From assembly GCA_947258795.1 (NCBI GenBank), contig CAMYJU010000016.1:21178-85177 (forward strand): 64,000 nt of DNA, read 5' to 3'. The notes under the pieces are model-generated. The model saw nothing but the letters and a program-made list of their open reading frames with translations. It was not told the DNA's origin and did not search any database. Source of the stretch: an uncultured Gammaproteobacteria bacterium. GTDB lineage: Bacteria > Pseudomonadota > Gammaproteobacteria > DRJJ01. Each line of letters opens with the position of its first letter. Within the stretch, counting starts at the first letter, position 1. The position numbers and the translations under genes are program-made. Positions 10,251 to 41,073 of this stretch are shown here, one piece after another.

Positions 10251-10757
10251 CTAGAAATCCGGGTCCCAGTCAACCGTGATTACCCTGTTCTGCAGATCAA
10301 CATCCAGTATGACGTCGTTACGCAGGTACGGTATCAGCCGTTCCCGTTCACCCTTGACCACCAGTACATCATTTGCGCCAGTTTCCATCAGGTAATCGAC
10401 TGTACCCAGTGACTGGCCGCTATCGGTCCGCACCTCCAGGCCTTGCAGGTCAGACCAGTAAAATTCATCTTCCAGCAATTCCGGCAGCTGCTCTCGCTGT
10501 AGCGCAATATCAGCACCAATCAGCCCGGTTGCCGCGTTACGGTCTTCATAGCCTTCCAGCCGCGCAATCACGCCTTTGCCATGCGTGCGGCCTTCGGCGA
10601 CCTCGAAACTGCGCCAGTTGCCATTCAGTTTTACCAGCCAGGGGCTGTACTGAATGATATTTTCCCGTGGCCGGGTATAGGAATACACCTTCACCCAACC
10701 ACGAACACCATACAGGCCGGTAATACGACCGGCCTGTATGGTGTCTTGATTCTTCAT
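10251..10757 (-). CDS. rimM: Ribosome maturation factor RimM
   Basis: 168 aa; [16 protein letters not shown]-terminal motif and PRC barrel C-terminus. Confidence 0.93.
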
Positions 10758-24849: not shown

Positions 24850-26700
24850 GTGTTACAGCAATCCAATCCATTTGGCCTGTTAGTACCCGTCAGGAAGGTT
24901 CCGACCGATCCGGGTCTGGGCCTGCGTGCGAAGGAGGTCTCGGCATGGTTGCATGGCTTGCCACTGGCCAACCCGGATATCCTTGGCAAGACGCTGTACC
25001 GCCGTATCGCGGTAGAAAACCGCACCGAACACAAACCCAAGGACAGATTGCAGTTTATCGAGCAGCTTAGGGAGCAGGTGCTTTACTGCGTTGATCATTT
25101 CAAATCCAGCCTGGTCAAATCATCGTTGCCGATGAGCTCACGCAAGCTGAAGAATGCCACCCAGGCACGCGCCCTGCTCACCGAACTAACCAATGCCTAC
25201 AAGATCGCGGTGGTCGACCTGCTGCAGGAGACCCGAATCGATGACAAGGCTGTTGCACTGGCCAGTCAACGTGCAATCCACAGTCTGACCAGACTGTTAA
25301 TGGTCAATTATGCCCATTACACCCCGGCGCCACAGCATATCTGGATGGAATTACACCGCTTGTACCACCTGGCAGAGTCACGCGAACAGCTCAATCTCAG
25401 AATCAGGGATGAAATGCAGCCCTCCAGGCGCAGTTCGGTTGAACTGGAATACAAACGCATCCTGCTGTTATCGCTGGCCAATCCATATCGCCTGCGTCGC
25501 GATGACATCGCGCCGGTCTATAACGCCCTGCAGGAATGGGCACAGCAAGTCAAAATTGAACGTAACCCGCAGTTTGCCGATAACCGGCCCTGCTTTGTCA
25601 TCGATCTGGATTCAGACCAGGCACCGAACCAGATCCAGCAAAACCGGGTCACCGACCAGGTTTATAACCGCTATATAAACCTGGACCGGCTCAACAAACT
25701 GCTCAGGAAAAACCTGGATTCAGTAAAAAAGAAAAACAAAATATCAGGCAGCTTGAGCCACAACACCTTATACAAGCTGCTGATGACCTGGGATATCAGT
25801 AGCAAACGGGTATTCAGCCGCACAAGCAAACTGGGCAAACTGGATATCACCGTGGGCATCAATAATACCCATGATGAAATCGACCACGATATCGTGGAAA
25901 GCAGTCTGCTCGAGACAGCCGTTCTGACACCGGCAACGACAGACACCGGGAAACACGAACAATTACCACCGCCACTGGAACTGATCGATATCCAGACCGG
26001 GTTCACGGTAGAAAAGGTGCAGCCCACAGAAAAGCAGCTCGATGACCCATGGGACAAACAGCTACTGTACAAACAGGACACTCACAATGATGAGCAGAAC
26101 CACAAACCGGCCGGTCACAAGACCACCGAGCGTTTCGGTCCGGCCAAACAGACCTGGCGTATGCTGAATATCAGCGCGGGTGGTTATTGCATCATGTGGG
26201 ACAAGGACACACCGTGCCCGACACAGGTTGGTGAGATCGTCGGCATACAAGAGACCAGTCCGGGTGGCAAACAGATCTGGAGTATCGGCATCGTACGCTG
26301 GATGGAATACCGGCCCTCGAACGGTCTGAAAATGGGTATACAGCTGATTGCGCCCAATGCAATGGCCGTTACCACCTATCCCTATGGCCTCAAGCAGCCT
26401 GACGTGGAGAAAACACTGCAGCTACCGGATCTTCCTGTGATCGACCAGCCGGCCAGCCTGGTTACCTCTACCAGTCACTACGAGGTCGGGGATCGGCTGA
26501 TCGTCGACCATCATGGCCACACCACTGTGGTACAGCTGAGCGAAGTTCTGGAACAAACCGGAAACATAACCCGTTTCCAGTACCATGAATTGAATAACAA
26601 GGCCGTCACCGGCAACCTGCCCAGGACTGATACCGGCGACACCCAGGAAATCAGACTGAGCGATTTCCCGGATGATTACTGGAACTGGCCGGAATCCTGA
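24850..26700 (+). CDS. Hypothetical protein with C-terminal PilZ-like region
   Basis: 616 aa; no recognisable N-terminal domain; residues ~435-520 contain R...WRMLNISAGG (NxSxxG) followed by beta-rich segment. Confidence 0.5.
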   Translation: MLQQSNPFGLLVPVRKVPTDPGLGLRAKEVSAWLHGLPLANPDILGKTLYRRIAVENRTEHKPKDRLQFIEQLREQVLYCVDHFKSSLVKSSLPMSSRKLKNATQARALLTELTNAYKIAVVDLLQETRIDDKAVALASQRAIHSLTRLLMVNYAHYTPAPQHIWMELHRLYHLAESREQLNLRIRDEMQPSRRSSVELEYKRILLLSLANPYRLRRDDIAPVYNALQEWAQQVKIERNPQFADNRPCFVIDLDSDQAPNQIQQNRVTDQVYNRYINLDRLNKLLRKNLDSVKKKNKISGSLSHNTLYKLLMTWDISSKRVFSRTSKLGKLDITVGINNTHDEIDHDIVESSLLETAVLTPATTDTGKHEQLPPPLELIDIQTGFTVEKVQPTEKQLDDPWDKQLLYKQDTHNDEQNHKPAGHKTTERFGPAKQTWRMLNISAGGYCIMWDKDTPCPTQVGEIVGIQETSPGGKQIWSIGIVRWMEYRPSNGLKMGIQLIAPNAMAVTTYPYGLKQPDVEKTLQLPDLPVIDQPASLVTSTSHYEVGDRLIVDHHGHTTVVQLSEVLEQTGNITRFQYHELNNKAVTGNLPRTDTGDTQEIRLSDFPDDYWNWPES

Positions 26701-26716: not shown

Positions 26717-27238
26717 CTAATATACCTGGGTAAAAATAGACGGGTAAATAATATTACTGCCCTTCCCCAGGGTGTTATCTGTCAATTCCATCGCACTGAA
26801 CAGATCGAGCGAGATCGGCAGGCTGCAATGCAGATCCCAGTCTGATGCGGGTTTGAAGCCCAGCCGATGATAGTAATCCGGGTGCCCGGCCACAACAACG
26901 GCGCCATAACCCAGTTCTTTTGCCTTGTTGATTGCGTGTTCGACCAGCTCGGTCCCGATACCACGATGGGACTGTGACGGAACCACCGCCATCGGTGCCA
27001 GCGCGAGTATATCCACCCCGTCACGTTCATTTTGCAAACGCACCCGGGTGAGCAATATGTGCCCAACGATACGTTTGTTAAATTCGGCTACCAGTGACAG
27101 TTCGGGAATATAATTACTCGATTGCCTGAGCTGCTCTATCAGTCCTACTTCGTCATCACCCTCGAAGGCACTCAGATGTACGACATCGATAGCCTTGATA
27201 TCATCAGCATGCTCTGACCTGACAGTAATCTGATCCAT
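26717..27238 (-). CDS. GNAT family N-acetyltransferase
   Basis: 173 aa; acetyl-CoA motif A region RGIGTELVEHAINKAKELGY. Confidence 0.85.
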   Translation of the reverse strand: MDQITVRSEHADDIKAIDVVHLSAFEGDDEVGLIEQLRQSSNYIPELSLVAEFNKRIVGHILLTRVRLQNERDGVDILALAPMAVVPSQSHRGIGTELVEHAINKAKELGYGAVVVAGHPDYYHRLGFKPASDWDLHCSLPISLDLFSAMELTDNTLGKGSNIIYPSIFTQVY

Positions 27239-27664: not shown

Positions 27665-29806
27665 TTGGCTGATTACAGTCTTATATCCCGGGCTTTGGAG
27701 GCTGGTGTGGCAAAAGACAGAACTTTGCGGGTCATTATTGCCGAGGACTCGCAAAATACTGCTGAGAACCTGATTAGCATACTACGTAATGCAGGTCATG
27801 CCGTGCGTCAGCATTTGCTCAATGACGAAGCCACTCTGCTTGAGACCCTGAAGGAACAGCCGATCGATGTCATCTTCCTCGGTCTGAAAACCGAGGAACC
27901 CACCCTGGACCAGACCACCCGGCACCTTAAGCAACTGAAACTTGACCTGCCGATACTGGCGCTAGCCGATGAATATGATATCGAACTTGCCACAGATATC
28001 ATTCGCCAGGGCGCATCCGACCTGGTGGCCAGGGATCATCCCGAACATCTGCAACTGGTGGTCAAGCGTGAAATCTCACACCTGAAACAGCACCGCGAAC
28101 TGGCTGGTGCCAAACGCGTCGCGCTTGAATCCAGCAAACGTGCTGACGCCCTGCTGGACACCTCGGCAGATGCAATTACCTACGTACATGACGGCATGCA
28201 CGTCTATGCGAACCCGGTTTACCTGCGCATGTTCGGTTTCAAGAGCCTGGAGGATATCGAAGGTACACCGATCATGGACATGGTGGCGCCCGCAGATCAC
28301 AACAAGTTGAAAGATTTCCTGCGCTCCCGGCAGTCTGATGAAAGCAAGATGTCCAGTGAGCTGGATATTACCGGGCTAAAAACCGGTGGCGAGGAGTTCA
28401 ATGCCTCAATGGAATTCACGCCCGCCACCTTTGAGGGTGAACCCTGTACACAGATTATTATCCGCGCACGCCTGGGTGATAGCGAGGAACTGGAAAAACA
28501 ACTGAAGAGCCTGACCCGCAAGGACATGCTGACCGGGCTGGACAATCGTCAGCATTTCATGGATATGATTGACCGGGATCTGACACAGTTCCAGAACCAC
28601 GATAAGACCGGGGCGGTACTGTTCATCACCCCGGACAAGTTCAAGGAGATAAAAGAGAATATCGGCATGAGCGGCGCCGACCAGGTAACCCAGGAAATCG
28701 CCACGATCATGAAAGACTCGTTGCCCGATGCCTTGCGCACGGCGCGTTTCAGTGATTATTGCCTGACCGCCTTCCTGTCTGGTGAAAACAACAACGATAT
28801 CCTGCAAGCCGCCGAGATATTCCGGAAGAGTGCCGCGGATCATATCTATACAGTCGACGACAAGTCCATTTCGATTACCTGCAGTATCGGTGTCAGTATC
28901 GTTGGACCACTGGACAAGGCCGCGCAGGACGTTGTTTCCTATGCCGACCTGGCCTGCGAAATGGCCATGAAAGAAGGGGGCAACCGGGTACATTTACATA
29001 ACCCGATCGCGGACCGGGATGCTGAAAACCAGCGCGATGAACGCTGGCTAAATCTGGTACAACATGCCCTCAAAGATGACCTGTTCCAGTTAGTTTATCA
29101 ACCGGTAGCCAGTCTGCACGGTGAGCCCGGTGAACAGTATGAAGTACTGATCCGGATATCCGATCCGGGTGGTGAGGACGTGCTGCCCAGCCAGTTCCTG
29201 TCGGTTGCGAGCAAACACAACCTGATGACGCATATCGACCGCTGGGTCGTCAGTCATGCCCTGGTGGCACTGGAGGAACATCGAAAACAGGCGCATGACA
29301 CCCTGTTTTTAATCAAGATCTCGACCGATAGCCTGATCGAGGCCGAGTTCACCAGCTGGCTTCAGGAACAGATCAAGAAAAGCAAGTTACCCGGGGAATG
29401 CCTGGTGTTTGAAATATCTGCAGCCAGTATACACCTGCATATGAATACAGCCGCCGAGTTCGGCACCATGCTGTCCAAGCATGAGTGCCAGCTGGCAATT
29501 GAGCATTTCAAGGCCGATCATGATGCCTATCAGATGCTCAAATACGTCAAGCCTAACTTTATCAAAATTGACGGGCAGCTGATCCGCGAACTCTCGGCAA
29601 ATCCCGATAATCAGGAAACGGTCAAGAAGCTCGCTGGCAAGGCCTCGTCCATGGGTATCTCAACCATTGCACACTTTGTCGAGGACGCCAGTAGCCTGGC
29701 CGTGTTGTGGCAATGCGGCATCAACTACATTCAGGGTAACTTCCTGCAGGCACCGTCAGCGAAGATGGACTACGATTTCGAAGGCGAGGCCGAAGACGAG
29801 GCCTGA
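27665..29806 (+). CDS. FimX-like degenerate REC-PAS-GGDEF-EAL c-di-GMP receptor protein
   Basis: 713 aa, TTG/GTG start; receiver-like N-terminus lacking phospho-Asp (IDVIFLGLK); GGDEF site is SDYC; EAL is EVL; DDFGTG replaced by EHFKAD. Confidence 0.7.
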   Translation: MADYSLISRALEAGVAKDRTLRVIIAEDSQNTAENLISILRNAGHAVRQHLLNDEATLLETLKEQPIDVIFLGLKTEEPTLDQTTRHLKQLKLDLPILALADEYDIELATDIIRQGASDLVARDHPEHLQLVVKREISHLKQHRELAGAKRVALESSKRADALLDTSADAITYVHDGMHVYANPVYLRMFGFKSLEDIEGTPIMDMVAPADHNKLKDFLRSRQSDESKMSSELDITGLKTGGEEFNASMEFTPATFEGEPCTQIIIRARLGDSEELEKQLKSLTRKDMLTGLDNRQHFMDMIDRDLTQFQNHDKTGAVLFITPDKFKEIKENIGMSGADQVTQEIATIMKDSLPDALRTARFSDYCLTAFLSGENNNDILQAAEIFRKSAADHIYTVDDKSISITCSIGVSIVGPLDKAAQDVVSYADLACEMAMKEGGNRVHLHNPIADRDAENQRDERWLNLVQHALKDDLFQLVYQPVASLHGEPGEQYEVLIRISDPGGEDVLPSQFLSVASKHNLMTHIDRWVVSHALVALEEHRKQAHDTLFLIKISTDSLIEAEFTSWLQEQIKKSKLPGECLVFEISAASIHLHMNTAAEFGTMLSKHECQLAIEHFKADHDAYQMLKYVKPNFIKIDGQLIRELSANPDNQETVKKLAGKASSMGISTIAHFVEDASSLAVLWQCGINYIQGNFLQAPSAKMDYDFEGEAEDEA

Positions 29807-31057: not shown

Positions 31058-31353
31058 CTTTTCGATTCCTTATTCAGAACAGGGCTACTCATAACAACAA
31101 CACACTATTGTACCGGCTTGGATGCAGCTGTGCACCCGGACCGGGACAGCCATCAGCATATACCGCTCGATTGAACGATCTGGAAACTACCTGTCTAAAT
31201 AATGGAATGTTATTAAGCCTTACTCACAAGTTTATGGCCTATCTATCGATTAAACATGGTAATATTAATTAATATAGGCTATAAACCATATGTACTGTAC
31301 TAGATTTACACAGATGCAATCAGGCAATCGCGGTGCTTGTCAGATATTTCAAT

Positions 31354-31407
31354 ATGAAACAGGCTATTACAACACCTGTTTCATAAACAACATCTGACTC
31401 GTATAAT
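31354..31407 (+). promoter_or_regulatory. Perfect 10-bp inverted repeat (atgaaacagg N11 cctgtttcat) followed by a TATAAT hexamer upstream of the cyclase gene
   Basis: Read directly from sequence; lies in a 440-bp AT-rich non-coding stretch. Confidence 0.35.
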
Positions 31408-31499
31408 AAACAGGTAGCGCCAATAACAATAACAATTCGTGTCTGATTGAAGAACCTAGTTGTGATATATGCTAAGACTACCCTTGGGGGAAGCGGGAC

Positions 31500-33068
31500 G
31501 TGTTTCTGTCGAATAAAAAACGAGCTGGGCAAAACGGCAATATTCGTCAAGGTATAAGGGATAGCAAATCAATTAATAAGGATGCTGTCTACCGACACGT
31601 CTGGCGCTTCTGGCCACGCTATATTCCAATCGCATTAAAGTTGTCACTGGCCATAGGGGTGATGTTGAGTCTGGTCATGTTTTTACTTGGCGCGATCATT
31701 ATCCATAATCAGACCGAATTGTTGAACCACCAGATACTGAGTAACGGCCGCATCGTCGTCAAACAAATGGCCGAATCAGCCAAGGAACCCATACTGGCGA
31801 ATGATGTACTGCAACTGGATGTACTGACCAATAGCCTGGCCAGTTCCGATGATATTATTGGCACCTCTATCTACTCGGCGGAAGGCAAGTCCCTGTCCAG
31901 CGCCGGCCCCCAGCCCTTTGAACCCTATGCCCCACTGGCCGGCCATGACATGACCTACCTGAAAAGATCGCCGATTACCGTACCATGGACCTGGCAGGAT
32001 TCAGCCTATGGCGACCTGGATGCGATATCCTACATCAGCCCGATCAGCTACAAGAACATTACCGCCGGCTATGTACTGACTACCTTCAGCCGCAAGAAAA
32101 TGACCAGTAGTATCCGCGATTCGATCCATTCCATCGTGCTGGCCACCCTGTTCCTGATACCGTTGGGTATCGCACTTTCCTATTTCATTTCCAAGAACTT
32201 TGCCCGTCCGCTGCAGGAACTGATGGATGCCAGCCGCGCGATAGACCAGGGCGAATACCGCTATCGCCTGACTGAAAAACGCAATGATGAAATCGGTTAT
32301 CTGATGTCGGCTTTTAATAGCATGGCCCACGGTATGCTACAGAAAAAACAGGTGGAAGAGGCCTTCGCCAAACACGTGCCTGCCAGTGTGGTCAAAAATG
32401 TCCTGGCCAATCTGAATGGCATACAGCTTGGTGGCACCCATACCCAGGCCAGTGTCATGTTTCTGGATATCGAAGGATTCACATCCAAATCCGAAAGCCT
32501 CTCACCGACCGAGGTAGGTGAATTGCTGAACGAATTCTTTACCTATATATCGGATACCGTACACCTCTATAAAGGTACCATCGACAAGTATATGGGTGAT
32601 TGTGCCATGCTGGTGTTCGGGGTACCTGAACCGGATGACGACCATATATTCCACTCGATTTCCTATGCGGTTTTCTTCCAGAAACTGCTGGTCAGAATAA
32701 ATAATATACGCTTGTCCCGCAGTAAGCTCCCGGTCAAATTCCGCATTGGCCTGAATACCGGTGAAGTACTGGCCGGTAATATGGGCTCAATCGATCGTGT
32801 ACAGTTCACCGTCGTCGGCGATACCGTTAACCTGGCGTCACGCCTGTGCTCCTTGTCCAACCCTGAACAGGTTCTGATTACCGAAGAAACCTACAATATC
32901 CCTATGGTACGTAAACGTATCGTCGCTACACGGTTTGACACCATACATGTCCGGGGTAAAGCAAGTCCGGTAAGCCTGTATCAGGTACATGATGTGGTTG
33001 AACCATACCGGACTGACATGGAACAGGAAATCCGCAGAATCTTACTTAAAACCCAACAGACACAATGA
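31500..33068 (+). CDS. Membrane-bound class III adenylate/guanylate cyclase with periplasmic sensor and HAMP domain
   Basis: 522 aa, GTG start (true start uncertain); TM1-periplasmic region-TM2-HAMP; cyclase motifs VMFLDIEGFT, KYMGDCAMLVFG, FTVVGDTVNLASRL. Confidence 0.85.
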   Translation: MFLSNKKRAGQNGNIRQGIRDSKSINKDAVYRHVWRFWPRYIPIALKLSLAIGVMLSLVMFLLGAIIIHNQTELLNHQILSNGRIVVKQMAESAKEPILANDVLQLDVLTNSLASSDDIIGTSIYSAEGKSLSSAGPQPFEPYAPLAGHDMTYLKRSPITVPWTWQDSAYGDLDAISYISPISYKNITAGYVLTTFSRKKMTSSIRDSIHSIVLATLFLIPLGIALSYFISKNFARPLQELMDASRAIDQGEYRYRLTEKRNDEIGYLMSAFNSMAHGMLQKKQVEEAFAKHVPASVVKNVLANLNGIQLGGTHTQASVMFLDIEGFTSKSESLSPTEVGELLNEFFTYISDTVHLYKGTIDKYMGDCAMLVFGVPEPDDDHIFHSISYAVFFQKLLVRINNIRLSRSKLPVKFRIGLNTGEVLAGNMGSIDRVQFTVVGDTVNLASRLCSLSNPEQVLITEETYNIPMVRKRIVATRFDTIHVRGKASPVSLYQVHDVVEPYRTDMEQEIRRILLKTQQTQ

Positions 33069-34162
33069 ACCGTTTTACTATCCTGCTGCTCATGTTGTTC
33101 GCAGTTATCAGTGGCTGCCAGATACTGCCGGCAAAAAACGAGCATCGACAGATAGATGAACTGGATGCACTACGCAGTCTCAATGAATATGACAAGGCAC
33201 TGGCACGCGCGCGCCAGCTGAAAAATTACTTCAATACACCCACCCATAAAAAACTGCTACAGGATGTACGCAGCGAAGCGGACGCCTATGACGAACAACA
33301 GGCAAGCAAGGTACAGGCCAAAATCATCGAACAGGACTGGGGTGGCGCATATAAATTACTCAATGAATCGTTACGCAAGTATTCCGGCGGCGAAAAAATA
33401 CAGGCCGCCGAACGCGAGTTCATCAACCGTAATGCAGTAAGCCTGCGTGAGCTTTATGCACGCATGTTACTGGCCAAGGCCGAATGGCTGCTGCAATCAG
33501 AAAAAATCCAGCAGGCAATCAACGCCACCCAGGTCCGTGAAAAACCGGAGAGTTCAAACATCCTGCCGTCACCCGAGCGCAAGGCCATAGCACAACAGCT
33601 GTTTGACTTCGGCAAGGCTGCCTATAACGAAGGAAACCTCAATCTGGCCAATGACCTGTACACCATGTCAGACAGGCTTGACCCGACCCTGGATATCGGA
33701 CGCGCCCGGGCGCAGCTGGACCAGTTACGTTATCAGCGCATCCAGGAACAACAGCAGGTTCAGCAGGCCCAGCAACAGAAAACCAGGCTGCAAACTCAGC
33801 GCCGGATTAAAAAGCTCAGTAATGAAACAGAAGAATATCTGCGTACCGGCGACCTGGTTGCTGCACGCGTATGGTTGTCCAAGTTACGCGCCACTGACAG
33901 GCACAGCAAGGAATACGAAAAGCTGCGCAAGAAGCTGACAGAGAAAATGAGTTCGCGTATCGACACCATGATCCAGCGCGGCAATACCCTGTACAGCAAC
34001 AATCGCTATGAAGAGGCGATTCTGGTGTGGAAAAACGCACTGGAACTGGACCCAAACAACAGCAAGATCCAGGCGAATATCGCACGCGCCGAACGCATAC
34101 TCAAACGCCTGAACGAACTGGAGCGGCGCGAGAGCAATTCAGACGCGGCCCAGCAAAGGTAA
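33065..34162 (+). CDS. TPR/coiled-coil lipoprotein
   Basis: 365 aa; lipobox LFAVISGC; Gln/Arg-rich helices and TPR-like C-terminus; 4-bp overlap with cyclase gene. Confidence 0.6.
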   Translation: MNRFTILLLMLFAVISGCQILPAKNEHRQIDELDALRSLNEYDKALARARQLKNYFNTPTHKKLLQDVRSEADAYDEQQASKVQAKIIEQDWGGAYKLLNESLRKYSGGEKIQAAEREFINRNAVSLRELYARMLLAKAEWLLQSEKIQQAINATQVREKPESSNILPSPERKAIAQQLFDFGKAAYNEGNLNLANDLYTMSDRLDPTLDIGRARAQLDQLRYQRIQEQQQVQQAQQQKTRLQTQRRIKKLSNETEEYLRTGDLVAARVWLSKLRATDRHSKEYEKLRKKLTEKMSSRIDTMIQRGNTLYSNNRYEEAILVWKNALELDPNNSKIQANIARAERILKRLNELERRESNSDAAQQR

Positions 34163-36592: not shown

Positions 36593-38479
36593 CTACACAA
36601 CCGCAAGATCGCCCTTCTTCTCCAGCCATGCCTTGCGGTCTGATGAACGTTTTTTGGACAACAACATATCCATCAGCTGATCTGTTTTATCGGCTGAGCC
36701 CAGCGTCAGTTGCACCAGTCTGCGCGTATCCGGGTCCATGGTAGTTTCACGCAGTTGCATCGGATTCATCTCACCCAGCCCCTTGAAGCGCTGTACATCC
36801 ACCTTGCCCTTGAGCTTCTCGGCTTCGATACGGTCCAGTACGCCCTGTTTCTCGCTGTCATCCAGTGCATAGTAAACATCCTTGCCCACATCGACACGGT
36901 ACAATGGCGGCATGGCTACATAGACATGCCCTTCCTCGACCAGCGCGCGGAAATGGCGCAGGAACAGCGCGCATAACAACGTCGCGATATGAGCACCGTC
37001 AGAATCGGCGTCCGCCAGTATGCAGATACGATTGTAGCGCAAACCTGACAGGTTCGGATTACCCGGGTCCACACCGATGGCCTGGGCGATGTCGTGTACT
37101 TCCTGTGATCCCAGTACCGAGGCCGAGTCAACTTCCCAGGTATTGAGTATCTTGCCACGCAATGGCATCACTGCCTGGTATTCACGATTGCGCGCCTGCT
37201 TCGCAGAACCGCCGGCCGAATCGCCTTCCACCAGAAACAGTTCGGTACGACCGGCGTCCTGGGAACTGCAGTCGGCCAGCTTGCCGGGCAAGGCCGGACC
37301 ACTGGTTACCTTCTTGCGCACCACTTTTTTACCAGCACGCAGACGCTGCTGGGCATTCTGTATCGCCAGCATGGCTATTTTCTCGCCGGTCTCGCTATGC
37401 TGATTCAACCACAGCCCAAACGCATCCTTGACCACACCGGACACAAATGCCGCACATTCACGCGATGACAGCCGTTCCTTGGTTTGTCCGGAAAATTGCG
37501 GATCAGACAGCTTGACCGATAGCACATAACTTACGCGATCCCAGACATCCTCGGGTGCAATGCGCACACCTCGTGGTACCAGGTTCCTGAATTCGCAGAA
37601 TTCGCGTACCGCCTCGGTCAGGCCGGTACGCAGACCATTCACGTGTGTGCCGCCCTGCGCGGTCGGGATCAGGTTAACATAGCTCTCCATCACCCCTTCG
37701 CCACCATCCGGTAACCAGACGACTGCCCAGTCCGCCATTTCAGAACGACCCTGCATATGACCGGAAAAAGGCTCTTCCGGCAGGCAGCTGGCGCCTGACT
37801 GCTCATCCTTCAGGTACTGGGTCAGGCCATCCTGGTATTGCCATTCCTGCTCTTCCCCGGAGGCCTCGTCACTGAATTTAACCAGCAAACCCGGGCACAG
37901 GACCGCCTTGGCCCGCAGCAGATGTTTGAGTTTAAGGACAGAGATACGGGGCGAATCAAAATACTTCGGATCAGGCCAGAAACGCACGGTGGTCCCGGTA
38001 TTGCGCTTGCCGACCGTACCCACCACCTCCAGAGGAGTCTTGCGCTGACCATGCGCAAACGAGATATTGTATTCTTTGCCTCCCCGGCGTACCCAAACCT
38101 CCATATGTTTGGACAAAGCGTTGACGACCGAAACACCGACACCGTGCAAACCACCCGAGTAGGTATAATTCTTGTCAGAAAATTTACCGCCGGCATGCAG
38201 GCGGGTCAGGATCACCTCGACACCCGGGAGCTTCAGCTGCGGGTGCTTGTCCACGGGCATACCACGGCCGTCGTCACGCACCTCAACCGAACCGTCCTTG
38301 TACAGCGAGACGTCTATGGTCCTGGCATAACCGCTGATCGCCTCATCGACACTGTTGTCGACTACCTCCTGCGCCAGATGGTTGGGACGTGTCGTATCGG
38401 TATACATCCCGGGGCGTTTGCGCACCGGTTCCAGGCCGGTGAGCACCTCTATCGAGGCCGCATCATAATCGGTCGTCAT
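36593..38479 (-). CDS. parE: DNA topoisomerase IV subunit B
   Basis: 628 aa; GHKL ATPase, Toprim EGDSAGG; adjacent to parC. Confidence 0.93.
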   Translation of the reverse strand: MTTDYDAASIEVLTGLEPVRKRPGMYTDTTRPNHLAQEVVDNSVDEAISGYARTIDVSLYKDGSVEVRDDGRGMPVDKHPQLKLPGVEVILTRLHAGGKFSDKNYTYSGGLHGVGVSVVNALSKHMEVWVRRGGKEYNISFAHGQRKTPLEVVGTVGKRNTGTTVRFWPDPKYFDSPRISVLKLKHLLRAKAVLCPGLLVKFSDEASGEEQEWQYQDGLTQYLKDEQSGASCLPEEPFSGHMQGRSEMADWAVVWLPDGGEGVMESYVNLIPTAQGGTHVNGLRTGLTEAVREFCEFRNLVPRGVRIAPEDVWDRVSYVLSVKLSDPQFSGQTKERLSSRECAAFVSGVVKDAFGLWLNQHSETGEKIAMLAIQNAQQRLRAGKKVVRKKVTSGPALPGKLADCSSQDAGRTELFLVEGDSAGGSAKQARNREYQAVMPLRGKILNTWEVDSASVLGSQEVHDIAQAIGVDPGNPNLSGLRYNRICILADADSDGAHIATLLCALFLRHFRALVEEGHVYVAMPPLYRVDVGKDVYYALDDSEKQGVLDRIEAEKLKGKVDVQRFKGLGEMNPMQLRETTMDPDTRRLVQLTLGSADKTDQLMDMLLSKKRSSDRKAWLEKKGDLAVV

Positions 38480-39087
38480 TCAAACACCCCGATACTTTGT
38501 TCTGGTGGGTAACGGAGATTACGGATAATCTCTGACACATTGGTACTGGTTTCATAGTGAACACAAAAATATTCTTCAAACAGATCGTAGCGGTAACGGC
38601 CACTGCCTTCCTTCTCAATAGCACGCCATTTCGCTGTTTTTTGCAGTCTGAAATCACCGTCACCCACCGCATAGGCATAGGTCTTGTACTCGCCGGTCTC
38701 GCAGCGAATTCCTTCATGGCGCAAATTACGAACACCACTGGAGGACTGGATGACGACAGTAAAACGCCTGACCCCGTCATGTTCACCGATACTCAGTGAA
38801 GCGGAGTCAATCGCATAACGATAGTTGTCATAACCGCGGCTTACGACCTGTAACGGGATCAGGTTATGCGGCTTGGGTAGTTCAGGCAGGGTCTCGTTCT
38901 GTTCCTGCCATTGATGCTCTTCGATATGCTCGGGCAATTCCACCATCTCGGAAATGTCGGCACGCAACGGAACGGCCATCATCAGCAGTACACTGATTGC
39001 CATCAATCGGGAACAGGTCAGTTTTATCATCAATCTGCACTTGTTATTAACATAACAGCCCGGCGCAGGCCAGGCTGACCGGATCAT
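38476..39087 (-). CDS. Hypothetical periplasmic protein, possibly CNP1-like lipoprotein family
   Basis: 203 aa with signal peptide; 4-bp overlap with parE; family assignment from memory only. Confidence 0.4.
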   Translation of the reverse strand: MIRSAWPAPGCYVNNKCRLMIKLTCSRLMAISVLLMMAVPLRADISEMVELPEHIEEHQWQEQNETLPELPKPHNLIPLQVVSRGYDNYRYAIDSASLSIGEHDGVRRFTVVIQSSSGVRNLRHEGIRCETGEYKTYAYAVGDGDFRLQKTAKWRAIEKEGSGRYRYDLFEEYFCVHYETSTNVSEIIRNLRYPPEQSIGVFE

Positions 39088-39143
39088 TATAACAAGCCTG
39101 GACTGATAGTGGCAGACAGGATGCCGCTGATGAGACCCTGATT

Positions 39144-39746
39144 TCAGGCCAGATCTTCCACCAGTGATTGTCGCAGGACCTCAGTGACCGGGGAGGCCTG
39201 CTCACGCAGGTAGTCATGGTCAATACCGACACTGATAGAGCCCCCCGACCTGGCGCTGGCAATCATTTCCGGTGTCAGTTCAAAGCGGAGAAAGTGGACC
39301 GATGAGGTCTTGGTCTCGTTGGCCCTTTCCAGGTCTTCGTCGGCGATAGCGAACACCCTGTCGTGACCCTCTACGCTGACCCAGACGCGATCTTCCACAC
39401 CCAGCAGCTTTTCCAGCGCTATTTTACGTTCATTCTCATCTACATATTCGATCATAAACGTGACTTTCCAGTTGCTACCATCCGGGATCATCGGGTTATA
39501 GGTATCCAGTTCCTCCTGGATTGCCTCGGCCTCGAAGATGCGTTCTATACGCAACATCTCCTGGATCTGGTACTGCATGATCATCCTGTTCTCGAAGTGC
39601 AGACTGGCATGTTCACCCAGCTTCAAAACCCGGGTTTTCTTCTGCTCCATCACCTCACTGCGGAAGTCCTGACGGACCTCTGCATATTTCTCGAGACTGT
39701 ACAAATCATCTCTGGTCAGTTTCTGTTCGCTCATATCAAATTCCAT
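39144..39746 (-). CDS. DUF3501 family protein
   Basis: 200 aa; sits downstream of the CCG-domain Fe-S protein as in the conserved Rbr/Fe-S/DUF3501 arrangement. Confidence 0.65.
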   Translation of the reverse strand: MEFDMSEQKLTRDDLYSLEKYAEVRQDFRSEVMEQKKTRVLKLGEHASLHFENRMIMQYQIQEMLRIERIFEAEAIQEELDTYNPMIPDGSNWKVTFMIEYVDENERKIALEKLLGVEDRVWVSVEGHDRVFAIADEDLERANETKTSSVHFLRFELTPEMIASARSGGSISVGIDHDYLREQASPVTEVLRQSLVEDLA

Positions 39747-41073
39747 ACGCCTTGCGCAGCAGGCTGATCGGATGTACCAGCGTGCTGTTGTCTTTCATAC
39801 CATTGGCAATCTGATGCCCTGCCATCGGACAATCACTGGTGTAATAATCCGGCTCGAATTGCTTGACCCGGTTTACGACAGGACGGGCAATCTTCATCGA
39901 TATCTCGTGAAATTCCTTTTTAACGGCATAGGTGCCGTCATGTCCCGAACAACGTTCGATCGCCTCGATCTTTGTTTCCGGTATAAGCTGGAGTATATCG
40001 CGCGTCTTCATGCCGATACGCTGAACACGCTGGTGACAGGCCACATGGTAACTGACCTTGCCCAGCGGATGTTTGAAATCGGTATTCAGCCGGCCGTCCT
40101 TGTTGCGTAGCATTAGGTATTCGAACGGGTCAAACATGGCATCCCTGACCTTTGCCACCTGGGCATCATTCGGGAACATCAAGGGCAATTCCTGCTTGAA
40201 CATCAGTACGCAGGAAGGCACCGGTGCAATCAGATCCCAGCCCTGATCCACCAGCTCGGCCAGCATCGGAATATTGACTTCCTTTGCCTTTTGTACGGAT
40301 TCGAGGTCACCGAGTTCCAGCTTGGGCATACCACAGCATTGCTCACGGTTTGCAAAACCCACCTGCAAACCATTATGTTCCAGCACCTTGACCAGGTCAT
40401 CACCAATCTGTGGCTCGTTGTAATTGGCGTAACAGGTTGTGAAAATCGCAACCTTACCGCTGGTCTGGTCAGTCGCAACCGGCTCGATACCCTGGCTGGT
40501 ATAGCCCTGGTATTGCTTGCGCAGGGTCTTGCTATGGTATTTCGGTACCACGGCGTCCTTGTGTACCCCCAGTTGCGACTCGATAATATTGCGCATACCG
40601 CTGTTTCGATTGGCCGCGTTCACGATATTCACCACAACCGGGATACCGGCCAGACTACCCACCTTGTCGGTTGATGACAGCAACTCATCACGCTTGCTGG
40701 CGCCCTGCTTGCGGTATCGTACCGCCTTGGCACGTAGCATCAGATGCGGGAAATCGATATTCCATTCATGTGGCGGGATGTACGGGCATTTGGTCAGATA
40801 ACACAGATCACACAGGAAACAGTGATCGACTACTTTCCAGTAGTCTTCTTTTTTGACACCATCGACTTCCATGGTGTCGGACTCATCGACCAGGTCGAAC
40901 AGGGTTGGGAACGAGTTACACAGACTTACACAACGTCGGCAACCGTGACACAGGTCGTAGACCCGCTCCAGTTCCGCAAACAGATTGTCCTCGTCCCAGA
41001 ACGAATCACTGTGCCAGTCCAGCGAATGGCGGGTCGGTGCCTCCAGACTGCCTTCCTGTATACCAGTTGCCAT
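39736..41073 (-). CDS. (Fe-S)-binding oxidoreductase with two 4Fe-4S motifs and two CCG domains (HdrD/GlcF-like)
   Basis: 445 aa; CHGCRRCVSLC and CFLCDLCYLTKCP ferredoxin motifs; CCG-type cysteine clusters (TTCYANY...CCGMP; VACHQ...DCPMAG). Confidence 0.82.
   Translation of the reverse strand: MATGIQEGSLEAPTRHSLDWHSDSFWDEDNLFAELERVYDLCHGCRRCVSLCNSFPTLFDLVDESDTMEVDGVKKEDYWKVVDHCFLCDLCYLTKCPYIPPHEWNIDFPHLMLRAKAVRYRKQGASKRDELLSSTDKVGSLAGIPVVVNIVNAANRNSGMRNIIESQLGVHKDAVVPKYHSKTLRKQYQGYTSQGIEPVATDQTSGKVAIFTTCYANYNEPQIGDDLVKVLEHNGLQVGFANREQCCGMPKLELGDLESVQKAKEVNIPMLAELVDQGWDLIAPVPSCVLMFKQELPLMFPNDAQVAKVRDAMFDPFEYLMLRNKDGRLNTDFKHPLGKVSYHVACHQRVQRIGMKTRDILQLIPETKIEAIERCSGHDGTYAVKKEFHEISMKIARPVVNRVKQFEPDYYTSDCPMAGHQIANGMKDNSTLVHPISLLRKAYGI

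Follow-up and report, generated by a model that had tools for sequence, protein, structure and literature searches.

The signals sensed by the membrane-bound class III adenylate cyclases of bacteria are still largely unknown. Accessory lipoproteins are established inputs of histidine kinases (QseG, NlpE, RcsF) and of one diguanylate cyclase system, YfiBNR (TpbB). In this system, which is present in Pseudomonas and E. coli, a cyclase with two transmembrane (TM) helices, a periplasmic sensor and a HAMP domain is set by periplasmic and outer-membrane partners from the same operon: YfiN produces cyclic di-GMP (c-di-GMP) through its GGDEF domain, and its soluble repressor YfiR is sequestered by the Pal-like lipoprotein YfiB. 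QseG belongs to the three-component system QseEGF of Enterobacteriaceae and other Pseudomonadota. For an enzyme that produces cAMP, we know of no accessory lipoprotein described so far. The helical lipoprotein QseG resides in the outer membrane, and its gene lies beside that of the 2TM-HAMP kinase QseE (PMC12691602; PMC6075780). The C-terminal helices of QseG clamp the dimer of the QseE periplasmic domain, and the resulting complex is 169 Å tall and can bridge the periplasm (PMC12691602). In NlpE-CpxA and RcsF-IgaA, outer-membrane lipoproteins likewise signal the state of the envelope to inner-membrane proteins (PMC12691602). Here we analyse a stretch of 64,000 nt from an uncultured gammaproteobacterium (contig CAMYJU010000016.1, positions 21,178 to 85,177; in the following called the window), in which the gene for a predicted membrane-bound adenylate cyclase overlaps the gene for a predicted lipoprotein, its partner. 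The two genes stay together in well over a hundred sulfur-cycling bacteria and thereby point to an envelope-to-cAMP sensor that has not been described before.

The coordinates of all features are compiled in Table 1. Both open reading frames (ORFs) are present as given in a preliminary description of the locus, and the stop codon of the cyclase gene overlaps the start of the lipoprotein gene by 4 bp. A protein identical to the 522-aa cyclase is on record (P0150). The GTG start of its gene and the Shine-Dalgarno (SD)-like GGGGGAAG at 31486-31493 are located within a block that is conserved in six aligned sequences. The 22 nt that precede the lipoprotein gene (TACTTAAAACCCAACAGACACA) contain no SD sequence. 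In the family as a whole, 13 out of 133 partner genes possess an SD core at -18..-4, compared with a coding background of 6.8%, hence there is no enrichment. Taken together with the stop/start overlap, this lack of enrichment suggests that translation of the lipoprotein depends on ribosomes terminating on the cyclase gene. Most likely, therefore, the two are translationally coupled.

For comparison, 174 related loci were fetched from Gammaproteobacteria and Desulfobacterota, containing 141 distinct partners. Wherever downstream sequence exists, the next gene after that of the cyclase belongs to this lipoprotein family (141 distinct loci). The genes overlap by 4 nt in 104 and by 1 nt in 28 cases, that is, in 132 out of 141. 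The median length of the partners is 358 aa and 140 of them possess a signal peptide ending in Cys, the single exception being located on a truncated contig. The pair is kept while the identity of the cyclase to that of the window falls from 87% to 30% and that of the partner to about 20–28%. Pairwise distances are on average largest for the partner (0.73), followed by the periplasmic domain (0.59) and the catalytic domain (0.41) of the cyclase. Among the hosts are members of Thiohalophilus, Thiohalomonas, Thioalkalispiraceae, Ectothiorhodospiraceae, Chromatiales, Desulfobulbaceae and Dissulfurirhabdus, and at least two carriers are in culture, Thiohalophilus thiocyanatoxydans DSM 16326 (L025) and Dissulfurirhabdus thermomarina (L006). 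The usual gammaproteobacterial gene order is FimX-like, DUF1015, (M48 peptidase), cyclase, lipoprotein, parC, parE. The pair is also present in quite different neighbourhoods and thus moves as a unit. When distant partner homologues (27% identity) were taken as the starting point, a cyclase was again found adjacent. We are therefore highly confident that the two genes constitute a functionally coupled module.

The architecture given before for the first gene product, two TM helices, a HAMP domain and a class III cyclase domain, agrees with the Pfam matches (HAMP, Guanylate_cyc) and with hydropathy, which together place the HAMP domain directly behind TM2. Among the 42 N-terminal residues there are 10 K/R and 2 D/E. 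According to the positive-inside rule the N-terminus should therefore be cytoplasmic and the segment between the TM helices periplasmic; by hydropathy it comprises about 135 residues, somewhat fewer than the approximately 150 estimated at first. This segment was confidently modelled as a PDC/sCache-like fold, in which a long N-terminal helix is followed by a five-stranded PAS-like sheet. Its best structural matches are the ligand-binding sensors CitA, Mlp24, DctB and PctA, and the matches include also LuxQ and LapD, the PDC-like domains of which bind protein partners. In Pfam this sensor segment has no Cache or CHASE match; a sole match to SMP_2 (PF10144) stays below the threshold (21.8 bits vs 28.9), and a precomputed SMP_2 match exists for some relatives. 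With NCBIfam, the N-terminal half gave weak, far sub-threshold matches to DgcN/YfiN and to a 'YfiR-like-associated' kinase model.

The closest alignments of the catalytic domain in the PDB are to Cya2 (2W01, E = 7e-31; engineered derivative 6FHT) and to CyaB of P. aeruginosa (3R5G, E = 6e-29). Judged by these alignments, the metal-binding residues D323 and D367 and the transition-state residues N444 and R448 are all intact. The six canonical catalytic and substrate residues are at least 90% conserved across 72 family members. An inspection of the substrate-specifying residues, ATP versus GTP, had been suggested in the preliminary description and was carried out here: K363 is aligned with a Lys in CyaB versus a Glu in Cya2, a guanylate cyclase, and T437 with a Thr in CyaB versus a Gly in Cya2. 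Lys plus Thr (IIIb) is the adenine-specifying combination, Glu/Gly or Glu/Cys that of guanylate cyclases. By these residue rules for class III enzymes the K363/T437 pair makes ATP the predicted substrate, and the sequence predicts a class IIIb adenylate cyclase as the product of 31500..33068.

The product of the second gene is predicted to be an exported lipoprotein, lipidated on Cys18. Its N-terminus, MNRFTILLLMLFAVISGC, consists of a basic n-region, a hydrophobic h-region and a standard lipobox (ISGC), in the order MNR-FTILLLMLFAV-ISGC. The lipobox LFAVISGC named earlier can thus be read directly, and Cys18 is invariant in 48 out of 48 aligned partners. Of the 118 partners with a strict lipobox, 111 have A, S or T at position +2 and none has Asp; Q is found in the window and in L090. 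By the +2 rule of E. coli we infer an outer-membrane localisation. That the protein is helical and contains tetratricopeptide repeat (TPR) elements was also borne out. An AlphaFold2 model (17 sequences) is wholly helical (pLDDT 88), with TPR-like helix pairs set apart by the very long helices 110-156 and 212-261. A single TPR, at 302-340 and hence close to the C-terminus, scores above threshold (TPR_11, 39.6 bits vs 26.8; TPR_2, 35.7 vs 27; TPR_1 also matched), and the partner forms no contiguous multi-repeat TPR superhelix. TPR_2 was matched in 33 out of 48 family members, and only TPR models are given by Pfam across that alignment. In these 48 sequences conservation is highest at the C-terminal TPR and the last helix, where Y310, W322 and R341 do not vary and G306, A318, P330 and A342 hardly do; the Q/K/R/E-rich middle is of variable length.

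There is no dedicated Pfam or NCBIfam model for the partner family, and for the partner from the window NCBIfam gave only one match, far below threshold. The family is nevertheless sizeable. An exhaustive profile search of 1.84 billion representatives yielded 493 clusters (50% identity) at E <= 1e-30, nearly all of 345-390 aa and matching from end to end, compared with just 20 homologues in a profile search of a word-indexed database. Members carry only the database labels 'TPR repeat protein' or 'hypothetical'. The cultured Microbulbifer mangrovi has a 343-aa 'hypothetical protein', P0143 (WP_078084236.1), which matches the partner profile with E = 1e-52.

The PDC domain is the sole extracytoplasmic part of the cyclase and therefore the only part that the lipoprotein could reach. 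Among the readings of the pair, binding of an accessory lipoprotein to this domain accordingly has the best support. The inner-membrane cyclase would act as a homodimer, in which signals pass from the PDC sensor via TM2 and HAMP to the class IIIb catalytic domain. The second gene would be translated by termination-reinitiation at the ATGA, and the helical lipoprotein of roughly 350 aa be exported and lipidated on Cys18. It may then serve as an accessory co-sensor, with its C-terminal TPR-plus-helix end contacting the PDC domain and its poorly conserved coiled-coil middle of variable length spanning the periplasm as a spacer. If the contact were made or broken, e.g. by a change in the outer membrane, in periplasmic width or in lipoprotein trafficking, this could be relayed through HAMP and turn cAMP synthesis up or down. 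The earlier suggestion of a functional periplasmic partner is strongly supported by the comparison, in which the pair, the overlap, the signal peptide and the lipobox Cys are kept in 141 loci from two phyla and several genomic contexts; the gating itself we infer, together with the physical contact, its sign (activation or inhibition) and the stimulus. On balance we lean towards direct periplasmic gating of the cyclase by the lipoprotein.

Several points weigh against such gating. With a pTM of just 0.54, the overall shape and reach of the modelled partner are uncertain. A search for structural analogues returned generic matches to the TPR sub-domain and none over the full length, and there is neither sequence nor fold similarity to QseG. 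The +2 rule, on which the outer-membrane sorting leans, is not universal. Literature searches found no experimental data on the pair, the carrier organisms of which are little studied. PDC domains, moreover, usually bind small ligands, and the partner is perhaps dispensable for sensing. The PDC domain might hence sense a small periplasmic ligand alone, and the lipoprotein be merely co-transcribed and have an unrelated function in the envelope. This would fit the top structural matches of the domain and also a mirror-tree analysis, which does not discriminate: the correlation of the partner with the periplasmic domain (r = 0.80; partial 0.32) is close to that with the catalytic domain (r = 0.79; partial 0.25) and gives no sign of a special co-evolution. 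However, overlaps of 1 or 4 nt without an SD sequence, as in about 94% of 141 loci from two phyla and several neighbourhoods, are not expected of unrelated genes, and we consider this explanation improbable. Somewhat more credit, although still as an unlikely case, may be given to two linked proteins without gating. The lipoprotein would then be an assembly, stability or localisation factor of the cyclase (e.g. for polar or envelope tethering), or its target would be a different component of the envelope that has to be present in proportion to the cyclase. A pure scaffold leaves unexplained the constant association of the partner with a single sensor family in different phyla and contexts, and in Pfam no domain for peptidoglycan binding or any other kind of anchoring is recognisable in the partner.

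Control of the locus might also be sought upstream of the pair, in the hairpin 31353..31385. This could be a regulatory element of the cyclase operon, either a repressor operator over the -35 element of the TATAAT (31402) promoter or a stem-loop in the 5' untranslated region. The perfect inverted repeat (IR) with its 11-nt loop is real, its arms being 11 bp long, one more than originally stated, and TATAAT follows downstream as described. Dinucleotide shuffling of the intergenic region produced a perfect IR of at least 11 bp in 0.3% of cases (p about 0.003), and the window has three such IRs versus 0.18 expected. The RNA fold of the hairpin has -13.2 kcal/mol (z = -6.9). It adjoins a 10/12 sigma-70-like match, TTCATA-16-TATAAT, and the third AAACAGGT copy permits an alternative pairing. 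Furthermore, four close relatives possess a different palindrome about 45 nt downstream, suggesting that some hairpin there may matter. Yet at the aligned position both the sequence and the pairing potential are missing in five out of five close relatives (six-region alignment and IR search), including L174 with its 92% identical cyclase, and the motif AAACAGG-N(5-20)-CCTGTTT occurs in 0 out of 174 loci. The preliminary description, which had proposed the hairpin as an operator candidate, had itself made this dependent on conservation in relatives, and a conserved operator is here rejected. In addition, the heptamer AAACAGG is over-represented generally, with 28 copies in the window versus 6.5 expected, and an IR of the same type, AAAACAGG-N8-CCTGTTTT, lies inside the FimX-like coding region at 29285..29308. 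Sigma-70-like promoter matches in the region are at chance level (5 vs 4.7 in shuffles) and Rfam detected no RNA family in it (best match E = 0.52). A terminator or attenuator was ruled out, since the stem is followed by CATAAACAACATC without a T-run and a terminator scan was empty here. We thus see only a slight chance that the hairpin regulates the operon. Going by the sequence comparison, it is a real, statistically unusual feature specific to this lineage and not a conserved operator of the module.

The intergenic region as a whole had been described as an unusually long, AT-rich leader of 440 bp. Length and composition were essentially confirmed (Table 1), and the 400-nt bin 31201-31600 has the lowest GC content in the window, 0.372. 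With the DUF1015 gene upstream on the minus strand, however, the region is shared with a divergent gene and therefore represents a divergent promoter region and not a demonstrated leader, and among the gaps that separate ORFs of at least 150 aa elsewhere in the window, several match or exceed it in length. In the five close relatives (cyclase 87–92% identical) an AT-rich gap of 424–448 bp is kept. Its central block with ACATGGTAATATT is confined to the clade of the window. The conserved TACAAT by the start of the DUF1015 gene is probably the promoter of that gene. The palindrome of the four relatives, ATTCGTATA-N6-9-TATACGAAT (L010:3911-3934, L170:2346-2373, L172:2350-2376, L171 about 2349-2373), is found about 65–90 nt before the start of the cyclase gene. 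The left arm and CGTATAAT of the window are homologous; the right arm is lost in the window and in L174. As a candidate operator or stem-loop this palindrome is better than the hairpin of the window. A small upstream ORF, 31256..31303 (+), with 15 codons (MVILINIGYKPYVLY), is open over 13–18 codons in all six aligned sequences. It was discarded as a gene, since its variable sites are distributed 4/5/5 over codon positions 1/2/3 and show no coding signature; the block is probably conserved DNA that is not coding.

Table 1. Features of the cyclase-lipoprotein locus and its upstream region (positions refer to the window).
Feature	Position	Strand	Remarks
DUF1015 protein, 413 aa	29816..31057	-	PF06245, 368.6 bits; syntenic
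Divergent intergenic region, 442 bp, 39.8% GC	31058..31499	.	between DUF1015 gene (-) and cyclase gene (+)
Promoter-like site of DUF1015 gene, TGCACA-16-TACAAT	31107..31134	-	TACAAT invariant in 6 sequences
Best conserved intergenic block	31213..31299	.	invariant ACATGGTAATATT (31255-31267) with TGnTAATAT extended -10-like sequence
Inverted repeat (hairpin)	31353..31385	.	arms TATGAAACAGG (31353-31363) and CCTGTTTCATA (31375-31385), 11-nt loop, perfect 11 bp
TATAAT	31402..31407	+	homologous to left arm of relatives' palindrome ATTCGTATA-N6-9-TATACGAAT
Third copy of AAACAGGT	31408..31415	+	could pair with 31374-31388, alternative to hairpin
Cyclase gene	31500..33068	+	GTG start, 522 aa; predicted inner-membrane class IIIb adenylate cyclase
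TM1, residues 41-72	31620..31715	+	Kyte-Doolittle window 19, peak 2.84
Periplasmic sensor, residues about 73-206	31716..32117	+	PDC / extracytoplasmic PAS (sCache-like) fold
TM2, residues 207-232	32118..32195	+	hydropathy
HAMP, residues 229-278	32184..32333	+	PF00672, 45.7 bits vs cutoff 25
Class III catalytic domain (Guanylate_cyc), residues 314-496	32439..32987	+	PF00211, 105.7 bits vs cutoff 21.9
ATGA stop/start overlap	33065..33068	+	putative translational coupling, from the geometry
Lipoprotein gene	33065..34162	+	ATG start, 365 aa; all-helical, C-terminal TPR
Signal peptide and lipobox MNRFTILLLMLFAVISG/C18, +2 = Gln	33065..33118	+	read from sequence
Best conserved part of partner, residues about 300-355, TPR and terminal helix	33962..34129	+	candidate contact surface

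Conservation of the flanking genes was considered as well. A DUF1015 gene is located upstream on the minus strand in 96 out of 150 unique loci; it is syntenic with the pair, and not shown to be a member of the module. In 109 out of 174 loci the gene directly upstream of the cyclase, in divergent orientation, codes for an HtpX-like M48 membrane metallopeptidase (309 aa with a HEISH motif in L008:3816-4745 (-)). The clade of the window is without this gene upstream of the cyclase, and a tblastn search for a pseudogene remnant found none in the 442-bp gap or elsewhere in the window. Farther upstream follow a REC-PAS-GGDEF-EAL protein of FimX-like architecture (27665..29806 (+); Pfam), a GNAT acetyltransferase (26717..27238 (-)) and a 616-aa ORF (24850..26700 (+)), which has no Pfam match in the copy used and whose positional counterparts in relatives contain FimW_N and FimW_C domains. 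Synteny of this neighbourhood, which is of c-di-GMP and type IV pilus type, with the cyclase pair extends to most gammaproteobacterial loci. We do not take this as a sign that the FimX-like and FimW-like genes are linked to the pair in function, as parC and parE show synteny to the same degree and the pair occurs also in unrelated contexts. Downstream of parE, at 38476..41073 (-), genes for CNP1-like, DUF3501 and CCG/4Fe-4S (heterodisulfide-reductase-like) proteins were found. A cAMP phosphodiesterase gene beside parE, as in E. coli, was looked for; yqiA-cpdA is not located downstream of parE here. In D. thermomarina (L006:6518-8667) the partner gene is followed, with a further 4-nt overlap, by a gene of the lipid A biosynthesis acyltransferase family (PF03279), a possible link to the envelope.

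Two other repeats of the window may be mentioned. Its longest perfect IR, 17 bp with a 6-nt loop (ACACCATACAGGCCGGT-AATACG-ACCGGCCTGTATGGTGT, 10705..10745), sits just within the 5' end of the minus-strand ORF 10251..10757. A perfect 11-bp IR, CCAGGTTTATA-N7-TATAAACCTGG, is located at 25656..25684 inside the 616-aa FimW-like ORF.

Full-text literature searches for an adenylate cyclase with a coupled lipoprotein retrieved none and led instead to work on QseG, NlpE, RcsF and solute-binding proteins. Sensing through accessory lipoproteins as such is already known; by analogy with these systems, the novelty here would lie in its feeding into a class III adenylate cyclase via a PDC domain, and in a new lipoprotein family. 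One may go further and regard the pair as the first case in which an outer-membrane accessory lipoprotein controls an adenylate cyclase. The long helical protein would span the envelope, from the outer membrane to the PDC domain of the cyclase in the inner membrane, and its family, with about 490 clusters, would be devoted to this function in Gammaproteobacteria and Desulfobacterota of the sulfur cycle. In this full form we put the idea forward as a tentative possibility, which we would not yet call probable. If true, envelope geometry or the state of the outer membrane would be converted directly into cAMP. The compact two-gene system is directly testable in an E. coli cya mutant, with more than 130 natural sequence variants at hand, and a sizeable lipoprotein family so far without a name is brought to notice.

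A comparison with characterised systems places the pair as follows. Its HAMP-cyclase arrangement resembles that of the mycobacterial Rv3645 and Rv1319c; these have, as far as we know, no PDC periplasmic domain and no coupled lipoprotein. In P. aeruginosa CyaB the catalytic domain is the same, with K/T as substrate residues and a complete set of residues for metal binding and the transition state, but the membrane anchor is of the MASE2 type and regulation comes from the cytoplasmic side. In LuxP-LuxQ and LapG-LapD the partners are a soluble binding protein and a protease, respectively, and not a lipoprotein, and the outputs differ. The partners in NlpE-CpxA and RcsF-IgaA are encoded by unlinked or otherwise arranged genes, have non-helical folds and act on phosphorelays. 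YfiBNR likewise contains a membrane cyclase for a nucleotide second messenger, with two TM helices, periplasmic sensor and HAMP domain, and genes for its envelope partners in the same operon; proteins like YfiR or OmpA/Pal are absent from the locus studied here. Of the characterised systems QseG-QseE is the closest. There, the output is a histidine kinase instead of a class III adenylate cyclase, the sensor is a four-helix bundle instead of a PDC-like domain, and the genes are separate cistrons followed by a response regulator, whereas here they overlap. The partner described here is about 130 aa longer than QseG, carries a TPR at its end and has no sequence or fold match to it. What the two systems have in common is an all-helical lipoprotein encoded beside a 2TM-HAMP inner-membrane sensor, and a partner that is best conserved at its C-terminus and has a helical middle of variable length fits a design in which, as in QseG, the C-terminal helices bind the sensor and the complex bridges the periplasm. 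By this analogy, the best reading of the pair is a cyclase that would be gated by its lipoprotein according to a principle like that of QseG-QseE.

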